Shown: positions 36,712-55,536 of the stretch, in pieces
How the letters are laid out: each line of letters begins with the position of its first letter
Numbering within the stretch: position 1 is the first letter of the stretch
Assembly: GCA_051531975.1 (NCBI GenBank)
Contig: JAOPTT010000006.1
Span: forward strand, 622,977 to 686,976
Origin: Spirochaetaceae bacterium
Lineage (GTDB): Bacteria; Spirochaetota; Spirochaetia; DSM-2461
Reading direction: 5' to 3'
Length of the DNA: 64,000 nt
The notes under the pieces: model-generated
The model's input: only the letters and a program-made list of their open reading frames with translations
The model's database searches: none
Told to the model about the DNA's origin: nothing
Position numbers and translations under genes: made by a program

Positions 36712-37773
36712 TTACAACATCTTTAAGTATTTCTTATATACCCAACCGGAAACCGTGATTTCGTTTATATAATCAAAGAATGTTACATATATCCACTTTC
36801 CTTTTCTTTTTTCTAATAACACTTTTTGATTTGGGTGTAAAACTGTGATGATTTCATTTTTAGTCGAAGGTTTAGACCGTATGTTTACAGTTCTTGTCAC
36901 AATGTAAAAAGTTGCATCTTGATTTACTACACTATAGTAATCAACCATAAAATCAACTATCTTTGATTGAGATTTTTCAATCAAGGATAATTTTTCGAAA
37001 TTGACTTCTTGATTAGTATCGATCTTCTCTTCAAGTATCACTTGATTACTATCAATTTTATCTTCAAGTTCGGTACTTTCATATTGGCTGTATATAAAAA
37101 ATAAAATACTTAAAATTAAGCTAGTAATAGCAATAAATCCTTCTAAACTTACAATAGTGGGTTTGTTATTGGTTATATGCTTAATTATATTTTGTTGAAA
37201 TTGTTCAAGCCGAACTTCAATATCATCAGTAGAAGTACTTGATGGATCTAATATTTCAGCATTAGAAAAAGTTTCTTCCAAATTACTTTCTTCATATAAA
37301 TCAGAATTTGCTACAAACTGAGTAACAAAGTCAAATGTGTTAAACATGTTTCTATGAGTCTTAAGTTCATCTGAAATATGAGAAGTATCAAACATTGCCT
37401 TCTGGGCTTCAAAAGCAGCAGTTATATAAGAAGTATCAAACATAGCCTTCTGGGCTTCAAAAGCAGCAGTTATATAAGAAGTATCAAACATTGCCTTCTG
37501 GGCTTCAAAAGCAGCAGTTATATGAGATGTATCAAAAATATTCATCTGAGTCTTAAGTGCTTTAGTGATAAAAGAAGTATCAAAAATATTCATCTGAACC
37601 TTAAGTGCTTTAGTGATATAAGAAGTATCAAACATAGCCTTCTGGGCTTCAAAAGCAGCAGTTATATGAGATGTATCAAACATAGTTTTTTGTGCGTCAA
37701 TGACATTAAAAATATTACTATATTGATTAACATTTATTTTACTTGCTAATTTTGAAATTTGATCAATATTCAT
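36712..37773 (-). CDS. Membrane-anchored SH3b protein with N-terminal 16-aa repeats
   Basis: FDTSHITAAFEAQKAM repeats, TM helix, C-terminal VNIRSKPS...GKWIYV...SGWVYKKYL. Confidence 0.8.
   Translation of the reverse strand: MNIDQISKLASKINVNQYSNIFNVIDAQKTMFDTSHITAAFEAQKAMFDTSYITKALKVQMNIFDTSFITKALKTQMNIFDTSHITAAFEAQKAMFDTSYITAAFEAQKAMFDTSYITAAFEAQKAMFDTSHISDELKTHRNMFNTFDFVTQFVANSDLYEESNLEETFSNAEILDPSSTSTDDIEVRLEQFQQNIIKHITNNKPTIVSLEGFIAITSLILSILFFIYSQYESTELEDKIDSNQVILEEKIDTNQEVNFEKLSLIEKSQSKIVDFMVDYYSVVNQDATFYIVTRTVNIRSKPSTKNEIITVLHPNQKVLLEKRKGKWIYVTFFDYINEITVSGWVYKKYLKML
37378..37685. repeat. In-frame 48-bp tandem repeats (~6.5 units, two variants)
   Basis: GAAGTATCAAACAT.GCCTTCTGGGCTTCAAAAGCAGCAGTTATAT repeated, with two units of a variant type. 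Confidence 0.9.
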
Positions 37774-41236: not shown

Positions 41237-41879
41237 AGAATTACCAAATGCATCATTTTCAATAAAGAAACCTCAATTACTGGAATTTCCATCATTTGCA
41301 GTATAAGAGACAAATTTAATCTCAAATACTAGCTATCTAAAAGTAATGAAATGAAAAATTCTGGTTAGTGATAGTAATGATGTCCAAACTTAGCCATAGC
41401 TATCAGATTATTTAACATAAAAATGTAACGACCATAAACACCTAATTATATAGATAACCTAAAATATTCATCTGGTGTGACCAAAACCCAAAACTGTAAT
41501 CAAAAAAAATAGATAAGTGTAAAAAGGTTCTTGGAAAGTTCGTTTCGCTAAACACGGATATATTGACCTATGATCTGATGCTGTTGGAAATCACAGGATT
41601 ATGCAGTTGGAACCTACAATTGATATTATTAAAATATCCCGGTGTTATTTAGTATACAGCCAAACTCATATTTGATAATTACTTTATTACCATCAACTGG
41701 ACTAACAACAGTGCCAATGAGATAAATCTAAATATCAGATAAGCATTATTCAAGGTTGGTCAAAGATTATTTTTTGATGTGGATAAACTATTAAACATAA
41801 TTATAGATCTCTGTAGCTATTATCTAAGTAGGTACAGTATAAGAAATAAGAATCACTCGAGGTGGAGGGTTATTTTAAT

Positions 41880-42216
41880 TGTGAACAAAATTGTGAACAA
41901 AAAAAATACAAAACTGTACAAAAGCAGACAAACCCATATAAATCAAAATGTTTTAAATCCTTTTAATATATAAAGTTATACAAAACAGTACAAAGCTATA
42001 CAAATAATGATATCAGGTTCGATTCCCTCCACCTCCAAAAACAAGACTCTTGTAATTCTATATACAGAAAAGAATTACAAGAGTTTTTCTTTTGATACAT
42101 ATTCAAATGTAGCCAATACTGTAGCCAATACCTAAATAAAGATGGACTGAAACTGTATTTTAAGCAGTCTAGAGGCTAAAAAAAGTATAGGATTCTCAGT
42201 TCAACCCTCCACCTCT
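41880..42216 (+). repeat. att-like unit A (arm pair, phased motifs, tmRNA-3' core, terminator, second arm pair, secondary core)
   Basis: TGTGAACAA x2 (41880, 41892); GGTTCGATTCCCTCCACCTCCA (42016-42037); 14-bp IR (42046-42084); TGTAGCCAA x2 (42108, 42120); AACCCTCCACCTCT (42203-42216). Confidence 0.85.
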
Positions 42217-42288: not shown

Positions 42289-43191
42289 TTATTTACACCT
42301 AAACCCACATTCTTTATTTATGTTGTTATTATTTAATCCCATAAAATTGATTGGAGTATTGGGAAACTCTATTAATAGATTATTAAACTTATTAATAAAT
42401 TCATCATACTCATCTAATGGTTTTATAAGTTCACCTATTATATCCAATATTATGATTATTTTTTTTCTTTGCTTAGTGCTATATATTCTTTGCATATTTT
42501 TAGTAATTGAAGGTTTTATTGTGAGTGATGAATTCCAAAGCCTACCGTGATGGGCACAAATATTTCTTATTGTAGTAATCGATTGAACCCAGGACTCTAA
42601 TAAAAATGGTTTAACTCTGAAATAATTTGCTATATTTTTTTTTACATCCTTATTTTCTAATGATTTATATATTTTTGACCAGCTCCCAAAAGATATTACC
42701 TCAATTAACATCCATGATGCAGGTATTTTGGGTTCAGTATATTTATCTATGTAATTTTTTATAAAAATCTCATTGCTTCTTTTAATTTCTCTCCCAATAT
42801 CTAAAATAAATTTTTCATGATCAAACTGTGCATTTACATGTTTTTTTGATAATGGCCAATGAGAATCTTTACTGTTTAATGACATATGTAAATTTAGTTG
42901 AGTCCGAAATGCTACTTCTATATGGGTAATTGCATCAAATAATATAGTTCTTAACTTATCATCAAAATTATACAGATCAACTACATTTTTAAAATCTGTA
43001 TTTTTTTTATATTTATGGGTTCTCTTCCTATCTTCAAAAATTTCATAGTGTAAAGCATATCCAACAAATCTATAATAGCTTACTTTATTTAGAAACTTCG
43101 TTGCAAAATCTCTATTGGAGATTACCATACCTCTAGACTCTAATATATTAAGTTGTTCTTCAATGTTTGTTGGAGGTGAATTATATTTGAT
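42289..43191 (-). CDS. AbiD/AbiF (Abi_2) family HEPN protein; probable ATC start
   Basis: PPTNIEEQL..L.SRG, VSYYRF, LY.FD..LR, IEV.FR, W.LIEV.SFG, RNICAHHGRLWN. Frame extends 21 codons upstream of the ORF-track ATG to an ATC 6 nt after AGGGGG. Confidence 0.85.
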   Translation of the reverse strand: MKYNSPPTNIEEQLNILESRGMVISNRDFATKFLNKVSYYRFVGYALHYEIFEDRKRTHKYKKNTDFKNVVDLYNFDDKLRTILFDAITHIEVAFRTQLNLHMSLNSKDSHWPLSKKHVNAQFDHEKFILDIGREIKRSNEIFIKNYIDKYTEPKIPASWMLIEVISFGSWSKIYKSLENKDVKKNIANYFRVKPFLLESWVQSITTIRNICAHHGRLWNSSLTIKPSITKNMQRIYSTKQRKKIIIILDIIGELIKPLDEYDEFINKFNNLLIEFPNTPINFMGLNNNNINKECGFRCK

Positions 43192-43217
43192 AGATATCCC
43201 CCTGTTTCATTGGTTAT

Positions 43218-43272
43218 AAAAAAGAAGACCCGTTCTGGTCCGCATCGTAGAGAGGCGTAACGGGTACTGTTA
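43218..43272 (-). ncRNA. Putative abiF-associated structured RNA (RNA antitoxin or leader)
   Basis: Minus strand ACCCGTT-ACGCCTCTCTACGATGCGGACCAG-AACGGGT then CTTCTTTTTT: a GC-rich stem-loop directly upstream of the Abi_2 gene. Confidence 0.65.
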
Positions 43273-43403
43273 ATTTAATCTTAATATGGAGTGTTAAAAA
43301 TAACAACTGCTTTATATAGATATTTACTCACTATTCATGAAATTTTAATGTCAGAATTAATACAACCTTCACTAATTGCACAATCTCTCTTAAATACTAC
43401 TCA

Positions 43404-43562
43404 TGTAGCCAATATTGTAGCCAAAACCCATACAAACTGGTGCAAAACAGTACTAAACCATACAAAGTCTATGACGTTTAAGTTGCGACTCTATATAAAG
43501 TTATACAAAAGAAAGCAAAACGATACAAAACATATTGGAGGTTTCGATTCCCTCCACCTTCA
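43404..43562 (+). repeat. att-like unit B
   Basis: TGTAGCCAA x2 (43404, 43416), phased TACAAA motifs, GGAGGTTTCGATTCCCTCCACCTTCA (43537-43562). Confidence 0.9.
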
Positions 43563-43569
43563 TTTCATG

Positions 43570-44251
43570 CTTATGTAAATCATTATATCGGATATGAATA
43601 ATCCATTTGTATATGTCCCTGCATAAACTTTAGTATCACTAACAAACAGGCAGTCCACATCATTTGTACCAAGTTGTGCAGTTTCGAAGGAATTTGTGGA
43701 TATATTGTAAATACTTAAACCCTGAAGTGTACCGATAAAAATATAATTGCCAGAGCCAGTAATATTATTAATCTGGTTATTTGTTAGACCGTCATCCGTA
43801 GTAAGGTTGTCCAATTTGTGCCACCATCGTTTGAATAAAGCAGACCATTGGAGGAAGTTCCAACGTATATATTCTGCCCAGATGCATAAACACATGTGGT
43901 AGTCACATTGGAAATAGATGTTCCTGTATATGATGTTATATCAAAAGTTTTGGAAAACGAAACATTAGGTAGGTCGGAAGTGAAAGTAATATAGATATCA
44001 TCAGAAACAGTATTTTTACTGTCTGTAACTTCTATTAATAAATCTTTTTCCCATAACCAACTAGGATTTCCATTAGGTACATATCCATCAATGTAGGACA
44101 GAACATGCTTTCCATTCCCATCTACTCCATATGACTTAGGAACCCAATCTAAACCCTTTTTATTAACATGCAGAAGCAGATTGTGGATTGTATCTGAAGC
44201 TTCAGTTACATCTTTATAAATTAAATTATCCTTTTTAAGAGGTTTATTCAT
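43570..44251 (-). pseudogene. Chimeric fragments: phosphotransferase (APH-like) N-terminus fused to a frameshifted beta-propeller fragment
   Basis: HNLLLHV..KG.DWVPK..G.D..G..VLSYIDG, then YVGTSSNGLLYS.DGG.NW and, in another frame, LTTDDGL.NN.I..I...IFIGT..GL. Confidence 0.6.
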
Positions 44252-52502: not shown

Positions 52503-52840
52503 TGTGACCAAAACTGTGACCAATTGAAATACAAAGCCGTACTAAACCATACAAAGCGATACAAAGAGTCGACGACCTAAGTTACTAAAGGGTATAAAGT
52601 TATACAAAGAGAGACAAAACCGTACAAATAAAAGACGAGGATTCGATTCCCTCCACCTCCAAAAACTAGACTCTTGTAATTCTATATATACAAAAGAATT
52701 ACAAGAGTTTTTCTTTTTATAAATATTTCAATGTAGCCAGTATGTAGCCAATACGAATAGAAAATGGTCGTTGAAACAGCATTTAAAGCACTCTAGAAGC
52801 TTAAAAAAGTACAATATTCCCAGTGTAACCCTCCACCTCT
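52503..52840 (+). repeat. att-like unit C (composite, like unit A)
   Basis: TGTGACCAA x2 (52503, 52515); GACGAGGATTCGATTCCCTCCACCTCCA (52634-52661); IR 52670-52708; TGTAGCCA x2 (52732, 52743); AACCCTCCACCTCT (52827-52840). Confidence 0.9.
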
Positions 52841-52916
52841 TGCTATGTAAAAGCAGTTAGTATATTAACTGCCTACAGAATCTATCTATGATGGACCATA
52901 TTGTCTAGACTAAATG

Positions 52917-53270
52917 TCAGCCACAAATCTTAATTTGTTTTTCTTTATTATATAAATTATAAAAATATGCTTCATCTGGTGTTCTTTTCCTAAGGGAATT
53001 ATGTGGTCTTCTTAAGTTGTATTTATCAATATATCTATTAATTCCTTGAATCGCTTCTATTGGATTTTCATAATCTTTTAAATAAACTTCTCCATATTTT
53101 AATGTTTTCCAGAATCTTTCGATTGTGATACTTTCTGATTCAGAAGTATCTGGGAAAAATAATCCTAAACAGCGGAATATAATTTTTACAATACTGATAG
53201 GCATATCTCTAAATACAACATCAAACATTAGGATAGCCATTGGAGTTCCTTGATTAGATATAAACATCAT
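52917..53270 (-). pseudogene. IS3-family transposase C-terminal fragment
   Basis: IERFWKTLKY.EVYL..Y, YN..RPH.SL...TP.E.Y. Confidence 0.8.
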
Positions 53271-53351
53271 ATATAACTAGCTAATAAAAACTTCCTATAA
53301 CATATAAAATTTAGAATTGTAATAAAGCATTATCCACTATATTATAAGTAT

Positions 53352-53669
53352 ATGAATCAGGATAAAAAATTAGAAAAAATCAAGGACATAATAGTCGAAA
53401 CTGTACATCCAGATAAAATTATACTTTTTGGATCACGAGCCAATGGTACAAATAAAGACGACAGTGACTATGATATCTTTATACTAAAAAATGGTATTAC
53501 TAATGAAAGAACCATAATTGGTGATGTCAATGTTGCCCTATTTAGGAATCATATTATTGATGATATTGATATTGTCGCAGCTAATCCTGAAAAATTTGAA
53601 AAACACAAAAACAATGACTATTTAGTTTATAAAGATATTTATAACCAGGGAATAACTATTTATGGATAA
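53352..53669 (+). CDS. Minimal nucleotidyltransferase (MNT) antitoxin
   Basis: ILFGSRA.G...DSDYD. Confidence 0.9.
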   Translation: MNQDKKLEKIKDIIVETVHPDKIILFGSRANGTNKDDSDYDIFILKNGITNERTIIGDVNVALFRNHIIDDIDIVAANPEKFEKHKNNDYLVYKDIYNQGITIYG

Positions 53670-54042
53670 GAGCATTGATCCAAAAGAATGGTTGAACAGA
53701 GCTTATGGTTGTTTGCTAAGGGCGAGAAAACCTATTGAAGAAGGTATGTACTATGAAGACTTCTGCTATGACTGCCAGCAAGCAGCTGAAAAAGCTCTTA
53801 AAGCCCTAATCGTTAGATTAGGTCTAGATCTACATAGAACCCACTCTTTTAGAAAACTTCTTAACGAATTAACAAAAAGAATAATTATTCCTGAATCAAT
53901 ATTTGATGTTCTTAAAATTGAAGTATATGCAGTAACAACAAGGTACCCAGATGATTTTATTGAAGTATCTGAAAATGAATATAGAGAAGCATTAGAAATT
54001 GCTCAAAGAGTATATGACTGGACTTCAGAAAATATAAAATAA
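53662..54042 (+). CDS. HEPN-domain protein paired with MNT
   Basis: CQQAAEKALKA, RTH, YAVTTRYP; overlaps the MNT stop. Confidence 0.9.
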   Translation: MDKSIDPKEWLNRAYGCLLRARKPIEEGMYYEDFCYDCQQAAEKALKALIVRLGLDLHRTHSFRKLLNELTKRIIIPESIFDVLKIEVYAVTTRYPDDFIEVSENEYREALEIAQRVYDWTSENIK

Positions 54043-54273
54043 ACTTCTATAAAATCTTACCTTTAGATGAATATAACCATTATTATTGTTTAAACCTTGT
54101 ATTAGATAAATACTAAAAAGTTACGAATTCCGTAAATTTACTAAATTCGAATCACTTCAGGTGTAGAGTTACGTTTCATTGTAACCAAAATTGGATAGCC
54201 ACAACCACTCTATTGTTCATTATGATGCAGTATTGTTTCCTAGAAAGCGAAAGTACTATGTAATCTTGTCAAA

Positions 54274-54432
54274 TGTAGCCAATATTGTAGCCAAAACCCA
54301 GACAAACTGATACAAAACAGTACTAAACTATACAAAGTCTAAGACATCTAAGTTACTAATCTGTATAAAGTTATACAAAATAAAGCAAAGCGATACGAAA
54401 GCTATTGGAGGTTTCGATTCCCTCCACCTCCA
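54274..54432 (+). repeat. att-like unit D
   Basis: TGTAGCCAA x2 (54274, 54286), phased motifs, GGAGGTTTCGATTCCCTCCACCTCCA (54407-54432). Confidence 0.9.
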
Positions 54433-54434
54433 TT

Positions 54435-54770
54435 TTAAGACTTATATAAATCTTTTATTGAAGTGATTAGCGTTGGAATTGTTCTTGAAACAGTTGTCCA
54501 AATTATTTCATAATCAACAACATCATAACCATGAATTAATCGATCCCTCATACCAGCCATAGCTTTCCATGGAATACTTTTATTTGATTCTCTAAAATCA
54601 TCAGGGATTCGCTTACTAGCTTCACCAATAATCTCCAAACATCTTATTACTGCAAATTGAGTTTTTTCATCGTATTTGAACTCATCTTTTGATAGTCCCT
54701 TTATAAACTCTTGGGTTAATTCCATAGATTTTAAAATATCGTTAAGATAGACCTTAAAATCTTTTTTCAC
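54435..54770 (-). CDS. hepT: HepT-like (DUF86) HEPN RNase toxin
   Basis: LEIIGEA, IPW..MAGMRDRLIHGY (RxxxxHxY). Confidence 0.9.
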   Translation of the reverse strand: MKKDFKVYLNDILKSMELTQEFIKGLSKDEFKYDEKTQFAVIRCLEIIGEASKRIPDDFRESNKSIPWKAMAGMRDRLIHGYDVVDYEIIWTTVSRTIPTLITSIKDLYKS

Positions 54771-55063
54771 AGATATTGAACCTCAGATAATATAGATTCA
54801 TTAATTATAGGTTTGAGTGAAGATTTTAGGACGAGATCAACTGTAGTATTTAGATCTTCAGTAAGTTCCTGCTCTAATGTAATAAGATCAAAAAGATCCA
54901 TTTTCGAGGGCCTAGACAAATCAATGAGTATATCAACATCACTGTTAGCATTTTCTTCACCTCTTACATAAGATCCAAAGATACCTATTTCACTAATACC
55001 TGATTCTAGTAATCTCTTTTTCTTTTTAAGAAGTGTATCTTTGATGATGTTTAAGTCTGTCAT
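54767..55063 (-). CDS. mntA: MntA-like nucleotidyltransferase antitoxin
   Basis: IFGSYVRGE....SDVDIL, VDLV...L. Confidence 0.9.
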   Translation of the reverse strand: MTDLNIIKDTLLKKKKRLLESGISEIGIFGSYVRGEENANSDVDILIDLSRPSKMDLFDLITLEQELTEDLNTTVDLVLKSSLKPIINESILSEVQYL

Positions 55064-55191
55064 ATATCCCTCTTACTAATATTATACTACTGCTAATTTT
55101 ATTTAAATAGAAGTAATTAAAATTTTACTTGTCTATTCAAACCTAATATTGAATTATCTACTGCAGATGTCATTAGTGCACATACTGTAAA

Positions 55192-55349
55192 TGTAGCCAA
55201 TATTGTAGCCAAAACCAATTCAAAATGGTACAAAACAGTACTAAACTATACAAAGTCTATGGCTTCTAAATTACGACTCTATATAAAGTTATACAAAATA
55301 AAGCAAAGACATACGAAAGATATTGGAGGTTTCGATTCCCTCCACCTCT
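55192..55349 (+). repeat. att-like unit E
   Basis: TGTAGCCAA x2 (55192, 55204), phased motifs, GGAGGTTTCGATTCCCTCCACCTCT (55325-55349). Confidence 0.9.
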
Positions 55350-55381
55350 AAAGATGTACTTTTTTTATTTAAACAATCTAA

Positions 55382-55480
55382 GTAGCCAAAACAAATTCAA
55401 AGGCATACAAAACCGTACTAAGCGATACAAAAATAAAGGCACCTACCCCTACACAGTATATAAAGTCATACAAAACCATA
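55382..55480 (+). repeat. Partial att-like unit F (arm and phased motifs, no core)
   Basis: GTAGCCAAAAC...CATACAAAACCGTACTAAGCGATACAAA...TATATAAAGTCATACAAAAC. Confidence 0.7.
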
Positions 55481-55536
55481 TTAAGGTAGCTAATATATCT
55501 AAAGCTGAATACCCATGCTATATGTTGATATAGTTT

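Follow-up and report, generated by a model that had tools for sequence, protein, structure and literature searches.

The window analysed here, a 64-kb stretch of a 5.46-Mb genome (G000; G001 denotes its sister species), contains a unit of about 1.5 kb bounded by two copies of a short repeat core. Gene abiF was the sole annotated gene between these cores, the other frames being short and unannotated. The following features were recorded for the gene and the sequence preceding it:

42289..43191, minus strand: abiF gene, 300 codons plus stop from a likely ATC start (43191-43189), with Pfam, PADLOC, 8VZ6 and Foldseek matches
42550..42567, minus strand: HEPN R-x4-H motif RNICAH (R209-H214), by sequence
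43129..43191, minus strand: stretch of 21 codons leading up to the first ATG and subject to purifying selection, with a predicted helix (10-19) in the model
43198..43203, minus strand: Shine-Dalgarno-like AGGGGG, 6 nt before the ATC, recognised by sequence, function putative
43218..43227, minus strand: U-rich tail CUUCUUUUUU, predicted terminator tail, by sequence
43228..43265, minus strand: abiF-type RNA motif ACCCGTT...AACGGGT, 38 nt, from Rfam RF03085 (30.9 bits, model positions 1-37) and covariation
43278..43306, minus strand: predicted promoter TTGTTA-17-TAAGAT, 8/12 consensus matches, kept in G001

The AbiF protein and its RNA motif

The minus-strand frame ending at 42289 was open from 43206 and carried RNICAH at 42567-42550, in agreement with the intact Abi_2 protein announced in an earlier note on this DNA. 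Its 300-aa product matched Pfam Abi_2 (E 2.8e-53), PADLOC AbiD (E 1.6e-69) and, as one solved structure recognised by sequence, 8VZ6 (PbAbiF) over nearly the whole length (E 1.9e-38). An AlphaFold2 model built from a 13-row alignment (pLDDT 92) retrieved the same entry, 'PbAbiF dimer bound to ncRNA', with Foldseek (TM 0.83, E 8e-16), the sole match below E 0.001. Residues R209, N210, C212, A213 and H214 were invariant in 13/13 alignment rows and the Ile of RNICAH varied. The motif aligned with RNSCCH of PbAbiF, for which an R/H mutant was reported inactive (10.1101/2025.04.15.648962).

This was the only Abi_2 gene in the genome. A 56%-identical homologue carries the name of Oceanispirochaeta, pointing to a spirochaete as host, and homologues at E 1e-40 occurred in 35/401 genomes of the class. 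Locus scans of genome and metagenome contigs with a single-protein query confirmed no relative, and an alignment query was then used. Membership of a CRISPR-Cas13 (type VI) system, i.e. an array beside a two-HEPN effector, was rejected: the 20 largest repeat families (out of 60 or more) between 30000 and 56000 included no repeat-spacer array, AbiF has 300 aa with one HEPN motif, and the fold match to Cas13d reached only E 0.87.

The 38-nt stem-loop described upstream of the gene was recovered at 43265-43228 with its U-tract directly after, and the link to the abiF RNA family held as well. Rfam model RF03085 matched over all 37 positions (30.9 bits, E 0.0044), a score below the gathering cut-off of 37 bits, and the hairpin is thus filed here as abiF-type rather than as a formal member. 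Scanned at the gathering threshold, the window gave 0 Rfam matches. In the structure given by this model, an outer stem of 7 bp and an inner stem of 3 bp are separated by a bulged A on one side and by a 6-nt 3' bulge (GACCAG) on the other, with a loop of 11 nt at the top. The hairpin claimed previously was retained, though not its single loop containing CGATGCGGACC, since that sequence comprises the end of the apical loop, the inner stem and the 3' bulge. The sole abiF-model match in the 5.46-Mb genome precedes the genome's sole Abi_2 gene on the same strand. Folding energy did not distinguish the hairpin from shuffled sequences (z -0.2 to -1.3), and the free-energy minimum lacked the model's inner stem (-12.4 vs -8.5 kcal/mol).

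Conservation of the motif was examined in the leaders of 235 distinct homologue loci (match beginning no later than residue 12, 160 nt or more of upstream sequence, loci duplicated in the first 150 nt removed), using anchors taken from close relatives that were defined by sequence only and required no pairing. These anchors matched 102/235 leaders, as against 2/235 coding controls and 0/235 reverse complements; the other 133/235 leaders had none. Over 48 distinct stems, 86.6% of the outer stem positions paired vs 70.3 +/- 1.5% with shuffled partners (maximum of 2000 shuffles, 75.9%). Among 16 hand-chosen rows all cells paired (160/160) and two-sided changes occurred in 5/7 outer pairs; the inner stem was invariant in these rows and thus provided no covariation test. 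Inner stem and bulge (CGC...GCGnACC) were conserved in sequence over 25-100% protein identity, and at least five T followed within 14 nt of the stem in 99/102 homologous motifs. With the Rfam model, three other copies in leaders of relatives reached 28-35 bits; of the 13 loci supplied, 11 gave no match to abiF at E 1.

The gene in G000 is preceded by one motif, not two. An AbiF locus with two abiF motifs, like RCd22, was encountered at L037 784-930. Furthermore, L028 5760-5810 (G001) and L011 1500-1557 (G015) displayed an abiF-type motif and promoter-like sequence with no whole abiF behind; judged by sequence, these could be antitoxins orphaned when the toxin was lost, or copies acting in trans.

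Start codon and expression of abiF

The hairpin had been placed about 27 nt upstream of the start, a position at which there is no start codon. From the stop at 43209-43207 onward, the frame has no ATG, GTG or TTG until the ATG at 43128, which lies 99 nt from the hairpin and is the start given by gene callers and by database protein P0002 (279 aa). An ATC at 43191, 36 nt from the hairpin, aligned with the start Met of homologues, and the four closest ones begin with MKYNSPP or MQYNSPP at this very codon. In relatives the same codon reads ATT (G001), ATG (G024 and G009) or GTG (G013). A Shine-Dalgarno-like sequence was found 6 nt upstream in both species, being AGGAGG ahead of the ATT of G001, and weak initiation at ATC/ATT is likely. 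Comparison of G000 with G001 showed 6 synonymous and 3 non-synonymous differences in the 21 codons preceding the ATG (dN/dS 0.098, with 0.107 for codons 22-240), these ratios being based on small counts from one genome pair. With the likely ATC/ATT start, the current annotation would trim 21 conserved residues off AbiF; such a start, if true, would add a layer of toxin control.

Among homologues, ATG, GTG or TTG occurred within -14 to +6 codons in 228/235 loci. The seven loci without a standard start included G000 and G001 as well as two others with ATA or ACG behind G-rich sequence; the leaders of L308 and L204 have ACG or ATA at the start position in this context. Non-AUG starts may thus recur in the AbiF family, as far as the sequences suggest. 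No paper on a non-AUG start in AbiF was found in the literature searched, and the supplements of 10.1101/2025.04.15.648962 may hold start-codon or context data. The host gene infC, considered as a precedent for an ATH start, begins with TTG and therefore provides none. An out-of-frame ATG at 43210, opening a 9-codon frame, was discarded as a regulatory uORF: it is absent in G001, and a variant at 43204 cuts it in sediment data sets X2 and X3.

The unusual start invites another reading, in which the RNA-protein pair is real and the present copy is a fresh pseudogene, its ATG changed to ATC, with little or no full-length toxin and the unit persisting as a fixed scar. The standard start of the 228 homologue loci speaks in its favour, as do five related family loci that are broken or without gene (the G001 gene is frameshifted, that of G009 split and that of G013 interrupted by an early stop, and G015 and another site in G001 have abiF-type RNA without a whole gene) and the eroded ends of the unit in G001. 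Lacking a standard start and having relatives that are often broken, the G000 copy could be decaying; recent decay is also conceivable from the small counts, the single genome pair and the G001 frameshift, located in an A-run at codon 245. Yet two independent recent mutations at one base would be required, since neither species has ATG at this codon and both display different Ile codons (ATC, ATT) behind strong Shine-Dalgarno-like sequences. The dN/dS of 0.098 for codons 1-21 was maintained across a dS of 0.65, and frame, catalytic motif, RNA and promoter are all intact in G000. As to G001, the tmRNA integrase is split there too, and its assembly may contain indel errors. We consequently regard the pseudogene reading as distinctly improbable and retain a functional gene initiated at the ATC as the favoured one.

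TAAGAT of the predicted promoter lies 18 nt before the stem, and TAnnnT was present at that offset in 50/95 homologous motifs. A promoter scan gave 6 sites vs 13.6 expected; the predicted abiF promoter was below its threshold and not among them. The RNA predicted from these signals would extend from about 43270 to 43218 (50-54 nt). A 503-nt contig of RNA run X9 over 42678-43191 (depth 4.9, 19 mismatches, 15 gaps) was rejected as transcription evidence.

The protein-toxin/RNA-antitoxin interpretation of the earlier note appears well supported by homology and covariation, and homology to two studied AbiF systems is the reason for proposing the following mechanism. A single promoter would give mostly the 50-54-nt RNA ending at the U-tract, and rare read-through would produce the toxin mRNA, the weak translation of which from ATC would lower toxin output further. 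The RNA would bind the AbiF dimer and block the HEPN site. Should RNA supply drop, upon phage infection or DNA loss, the RNase would arrest growth, resulting in abortive-infection defence and in retention of the DNA in the chromosome. Addiction of this kind would explain the maintenance of toxin-antitoxin pairs in three of the four small units described below. The anti-phage role is suggested by analogy with the family and its lactococcal members, as reported in PMC13064643.

The stem and U-tract being located between promoter and gene, the hairpin might instead act in cis, as an attenuator or autogenous operator limiting abiF expression, and not as a diffusible antitoxin. Control of AbiD1 at translation by a phage protein, as reported in PMC13064643, is compatible with this. 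Such a role is nevertheless very improbable in our opinion, since inner stem and bulge are conserved beyond a terminator's needs over the range of protein identities given above, and direct binding is reported to neutralise two homologues (10.1101/2025.04.15.648962, PMC13064643). A diffusible RNA antitoxin is therefore preferred.

att ends and the tandem array at the tmRNA gene

The ends of the unit displayed the following organization:

42018..42034, plus strand: core A, which reproduces the 3' end of tmRNA, the same 17-mer being present in the tmRNA gene at C6:592211
42046..42127, plus strand: attL-type half, with a terminator-like hairpin (42046-42084) and an arm pair, TGTAGCCA x2 (42108-42127), 90 nt after the core
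42205..42215, plus strand: degenerate second core A2, where likeness to the left end of a sister unit stops
43404..43559, plus strand: attR-type unit B, with an arm pair (TGTAGCCA x2), ATACAAA repeats and a core at 43543, 139 nt after the arm

The cores correspond to the last ~17 nt of the tmRNA gene (C6:591850-592230) and six copies occur in a row. ARAGORN detected 0 genes in the window, the tmRNA gene being situated 30.7 kb ahead of it. Core copies were highest in G000, the sole genome with more than four matches among 38 family genomes. Behind the tmRNA gene, a terminator-like hairpin is followed by an arm pair at 91 nt, a layout matched by the left end of the AbiF unit; a tyrosine integrase (C6:592333-593457) comes next. 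Core A is both the right end of this 72.8-kb integrase island and the left end of the AbiF unit. Unit B was identical to units D and E at 140/156 positions, and just before the arm at 20/60; core B shows a one-base difference directly after the 17-mer. The later cores are each preceded by an arm pair at 138-139 nt.

Both ends of the first island share their arm type in G000, G001 and G018 (TGTGAACA, TGTGACCA and TGTAGCCA, in that order), and the first-island ends of G041, G045 and G021 look related (unscored). In G018, TGTAGCCA arms precede an integrase gene of the same family. The AbiF unit differs from its neighbours in that each end has a TGTAGCCA pair at the standard spacing, and it lacks an integrase; the one integrase of this family in G000 lies 72 kb away.

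These observations modify the earlier picture of an AbiF module packaged as its own cassette and filling the space between att units A and B. Repeats do lie on both sides (cores at 42018 and 43543), but the module does not take up all the space between them: ~270 nt on the left (terminator, arm pair and degenerate core) and 155 nt on the right are att sequence. As att units, the repeats stand as copies of the tmRNA 3' end with integrase arm sites, not as integron-type cassette bounds. Likewise, the unit is an entity of its own in its anatomy, i.e. matching attL- and attR-type ends without integrase, although it belongs to a tandem island array, and the unit of G001 at the same junction has eroded ends. 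The terms attL/attR, arm-type site and attC belong to the background on tyrosine integrases and integrons, where attC sites bound integron gene cassettes. What bounds the present unit is the 3' end of tmRNA, repeated in direct orientation and accompanied by arm pairs; these bounds lack the attC character and led us to reject an integron gene cassette.

Flanked by attL and attR, devoid of recombinase and mobilisation genes and placed in tandem behind an element that has an integrase and adjoins the target gene, the AbiF unit would represent a CIME-like mini-island in a tandem array rather than an integron cassette. Its probable ancestor is a TGTAGCCA-arm tmRNA island that lost the integrase and the bulk of its cargo, and its movement would depend on an integrase from another island. 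In an alternative parse, the 180 nt from core A to A2 would form a microCIME and AbiF a unit with attR only.

Past movement of the AbiF segment as a unit is likely. A more far-reaching possibility is an integron-like array at the tmRNA gene, in which the ends, without an integrase of their own, would serve repeatedly as a chassis that undergoes active excision and re-insertion with varied toxin-antitoxin cargo. The left end of unit C-D matches that of the AbiF unit as far as the degenerate core (86% over 201 nt) and its right end is 140/156 identical to B from the arm pair onward, both with sharp borders, but C-D contains an MNT-HEPN pair instead; unit D-E holds another toxin-antitoxin pair. 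In one sediment sample (X2, X3), the AbiF unit reached a depth of ~100-137 in X2 vs less than 10 for its flanks, and sediment contigs linked a C-type attR to the AbiF unit and B directly to a chassis left end. However, homologous recombination or mixed strains could yield the same contig joints. The joint 43559 to 42018 expected of a circle was absent among the joints listed (15 of 21), in contigs that drop rare forms. The unit of G001 occupies this junction too, with a single degenerate arm on the left and the right core missing, the abundance of core matches is confined to G000 among the family genomes, its only integrase of this family resides in an island with a different arm type, and a core was nearby in 0/6 loci of the closest AbiF homologues from other genera. 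Next to the AbiF loci contained in 42 loci scanned, there were 2 tRNA genes and no tmRNA. Active exchange of this kind is rather unlikely. We are equally doubtful about its extension to a genus-wide cassette system, in which one integrase-less att-end pair would be reloaded at the tmRNA gene with single toxin-antitoxin modules (AbiF-RNA, MNT-HEPN, MNT-HepT) and shuffled by an island integrase acting in trans, and in which the conserved non-AUG start of AbiF would be a third brake besides termination and RNA binding.

Several further observations were made in and around the array. Single half-copies of the tmRNA core (CCCTCCACC) occur in the window at 41859-41869 (minus strand), 42205-42215 (plus) and 52829-52839 (plus), and at L026 9875-9885 (minus). 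They flank the A junction in opposite orientations, an arrangement kept in G001, and the right-hand ones mark the border between shared end sequence and cargo. The region 52642-55488 comprises three more small units: one has an IS3-type fragment and an MNT-HEPN pair (53352-54042), another an MNT-HepT pair (54435-55063), and the third is a partial arm unit without core (55382-55488). Behind cores D (54413-54460) and B (43543-43590) only half of the attL terminator is left, and these halves double as the 3' end and stop of minus-strand frames, HepT at D and a beta-propeller fragment at B; from the sequence, they look as if produced by deletions ending inside the terminator.

A 5.9-kb tmRNA island in G045 (L324 208-6118) with a TGTAGCCA arm pair, the integrase of which is truncated after ~24 codons, is another remnant of this arm type. 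The 72.8-kb first island (C6:592211-664994; L001, L002 and window 1-42018) contains a type I restriction-modification-like set (by eye from translations), DUF2971 (PDC-S31-like) genes, ArdC, RadC paralogues and a D5-like primase. At 37262-37741, at least seven tandem repeats of 48 nt (16 aa) lie within the N-terminal portion of a 353-aa protein whose C-terminal domain is an SH3.

Considering gene, RNA and ends jointly, the locus most probably consists of an AbiF HEPN RNase gene and an abiF-type RNA hairpin, likely a type III toxin-antitoxin pair, in an integrase-less mini-island, the second of the units arranged in tandem at the tmRNA gene. At 1.5 kb, it would be a near-minimal att-bounded defence element and offers an easy test of whether integrase-less tmRNA remnants still move.

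Relation to known systems

The AbiF-RNA pair is likely a further member of a widespread and already described family, its likely non-AUG start being the only detail for which the literature searched held no report. The closest point of comparison is PbAbiF-AbiFr, reported as a type III toxin-antitoxin system with structure 8VZ6 (PMC12737573, PMC13064643, 10.1101/2025.04.15.648962). Both share full-length sequence and fold similarity, an aligned R-x4-H motif and one upstream motif with a 3' bulge; they differ by an identity of 29% and, in the present case, by the likely ATC start and the tmRNA mini-island.

Terminated RNA with read-through, neutralisation in cis and trans and inactive R/H mutants were reported for an AbiF homologue system, and AbiF(Cd)-RCd22 originates from Clostridioides difficile prophage phi027 (10.1101/2025.04.15.648962). 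The order promoter, abiF motif, terminator and gene is the same as here, where promoter and terminator are predicted, and the HEPN R/H motif is common to both. In contrast, AbiF(Cd)-RCd22 is described with two motifs, a separate terminator, an ATG start and a location in a lysis module, whereas G000 has a single motif with the U-tract immediately after. Compared with Rfam abiF RF03085, the hairpin shares 37/37 model positions and the model structure, its score remaining below the cut-off (30.9 vs 37 bits).

As to the ends, CIMEs are defined as elements of 1.2-13 kb that kept att ends, lost recombination genes and lie distal to the target gene (PMC7563491). The AbiF unit resembles the CIMEs and microCIMEs reported in tandem arrays (PMC7563491, PMC10201445) by its att ends, absence of recombinase, size of 1.5 kb and position beyond the intact island as seen from the target gene. 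Those elements are streptococcal and situated behind ICEs or IMEs, whereas several units share one end pair here and carry toxin-antitoxin genes. At ssrA of Dehalococcoides, tandem islands bounded by tmRNA 3'-end repeats were reported within 100 kb, many of them without integration module (PMC3146451). The array described here shares the tandem arrangement, the type of bounds and the integrase-less units, but the Dehalococcoides islands are associated with a serine recombinase and rdhA, in contrast to the tyrosine integrase with arm-type repeats found at the present locus.
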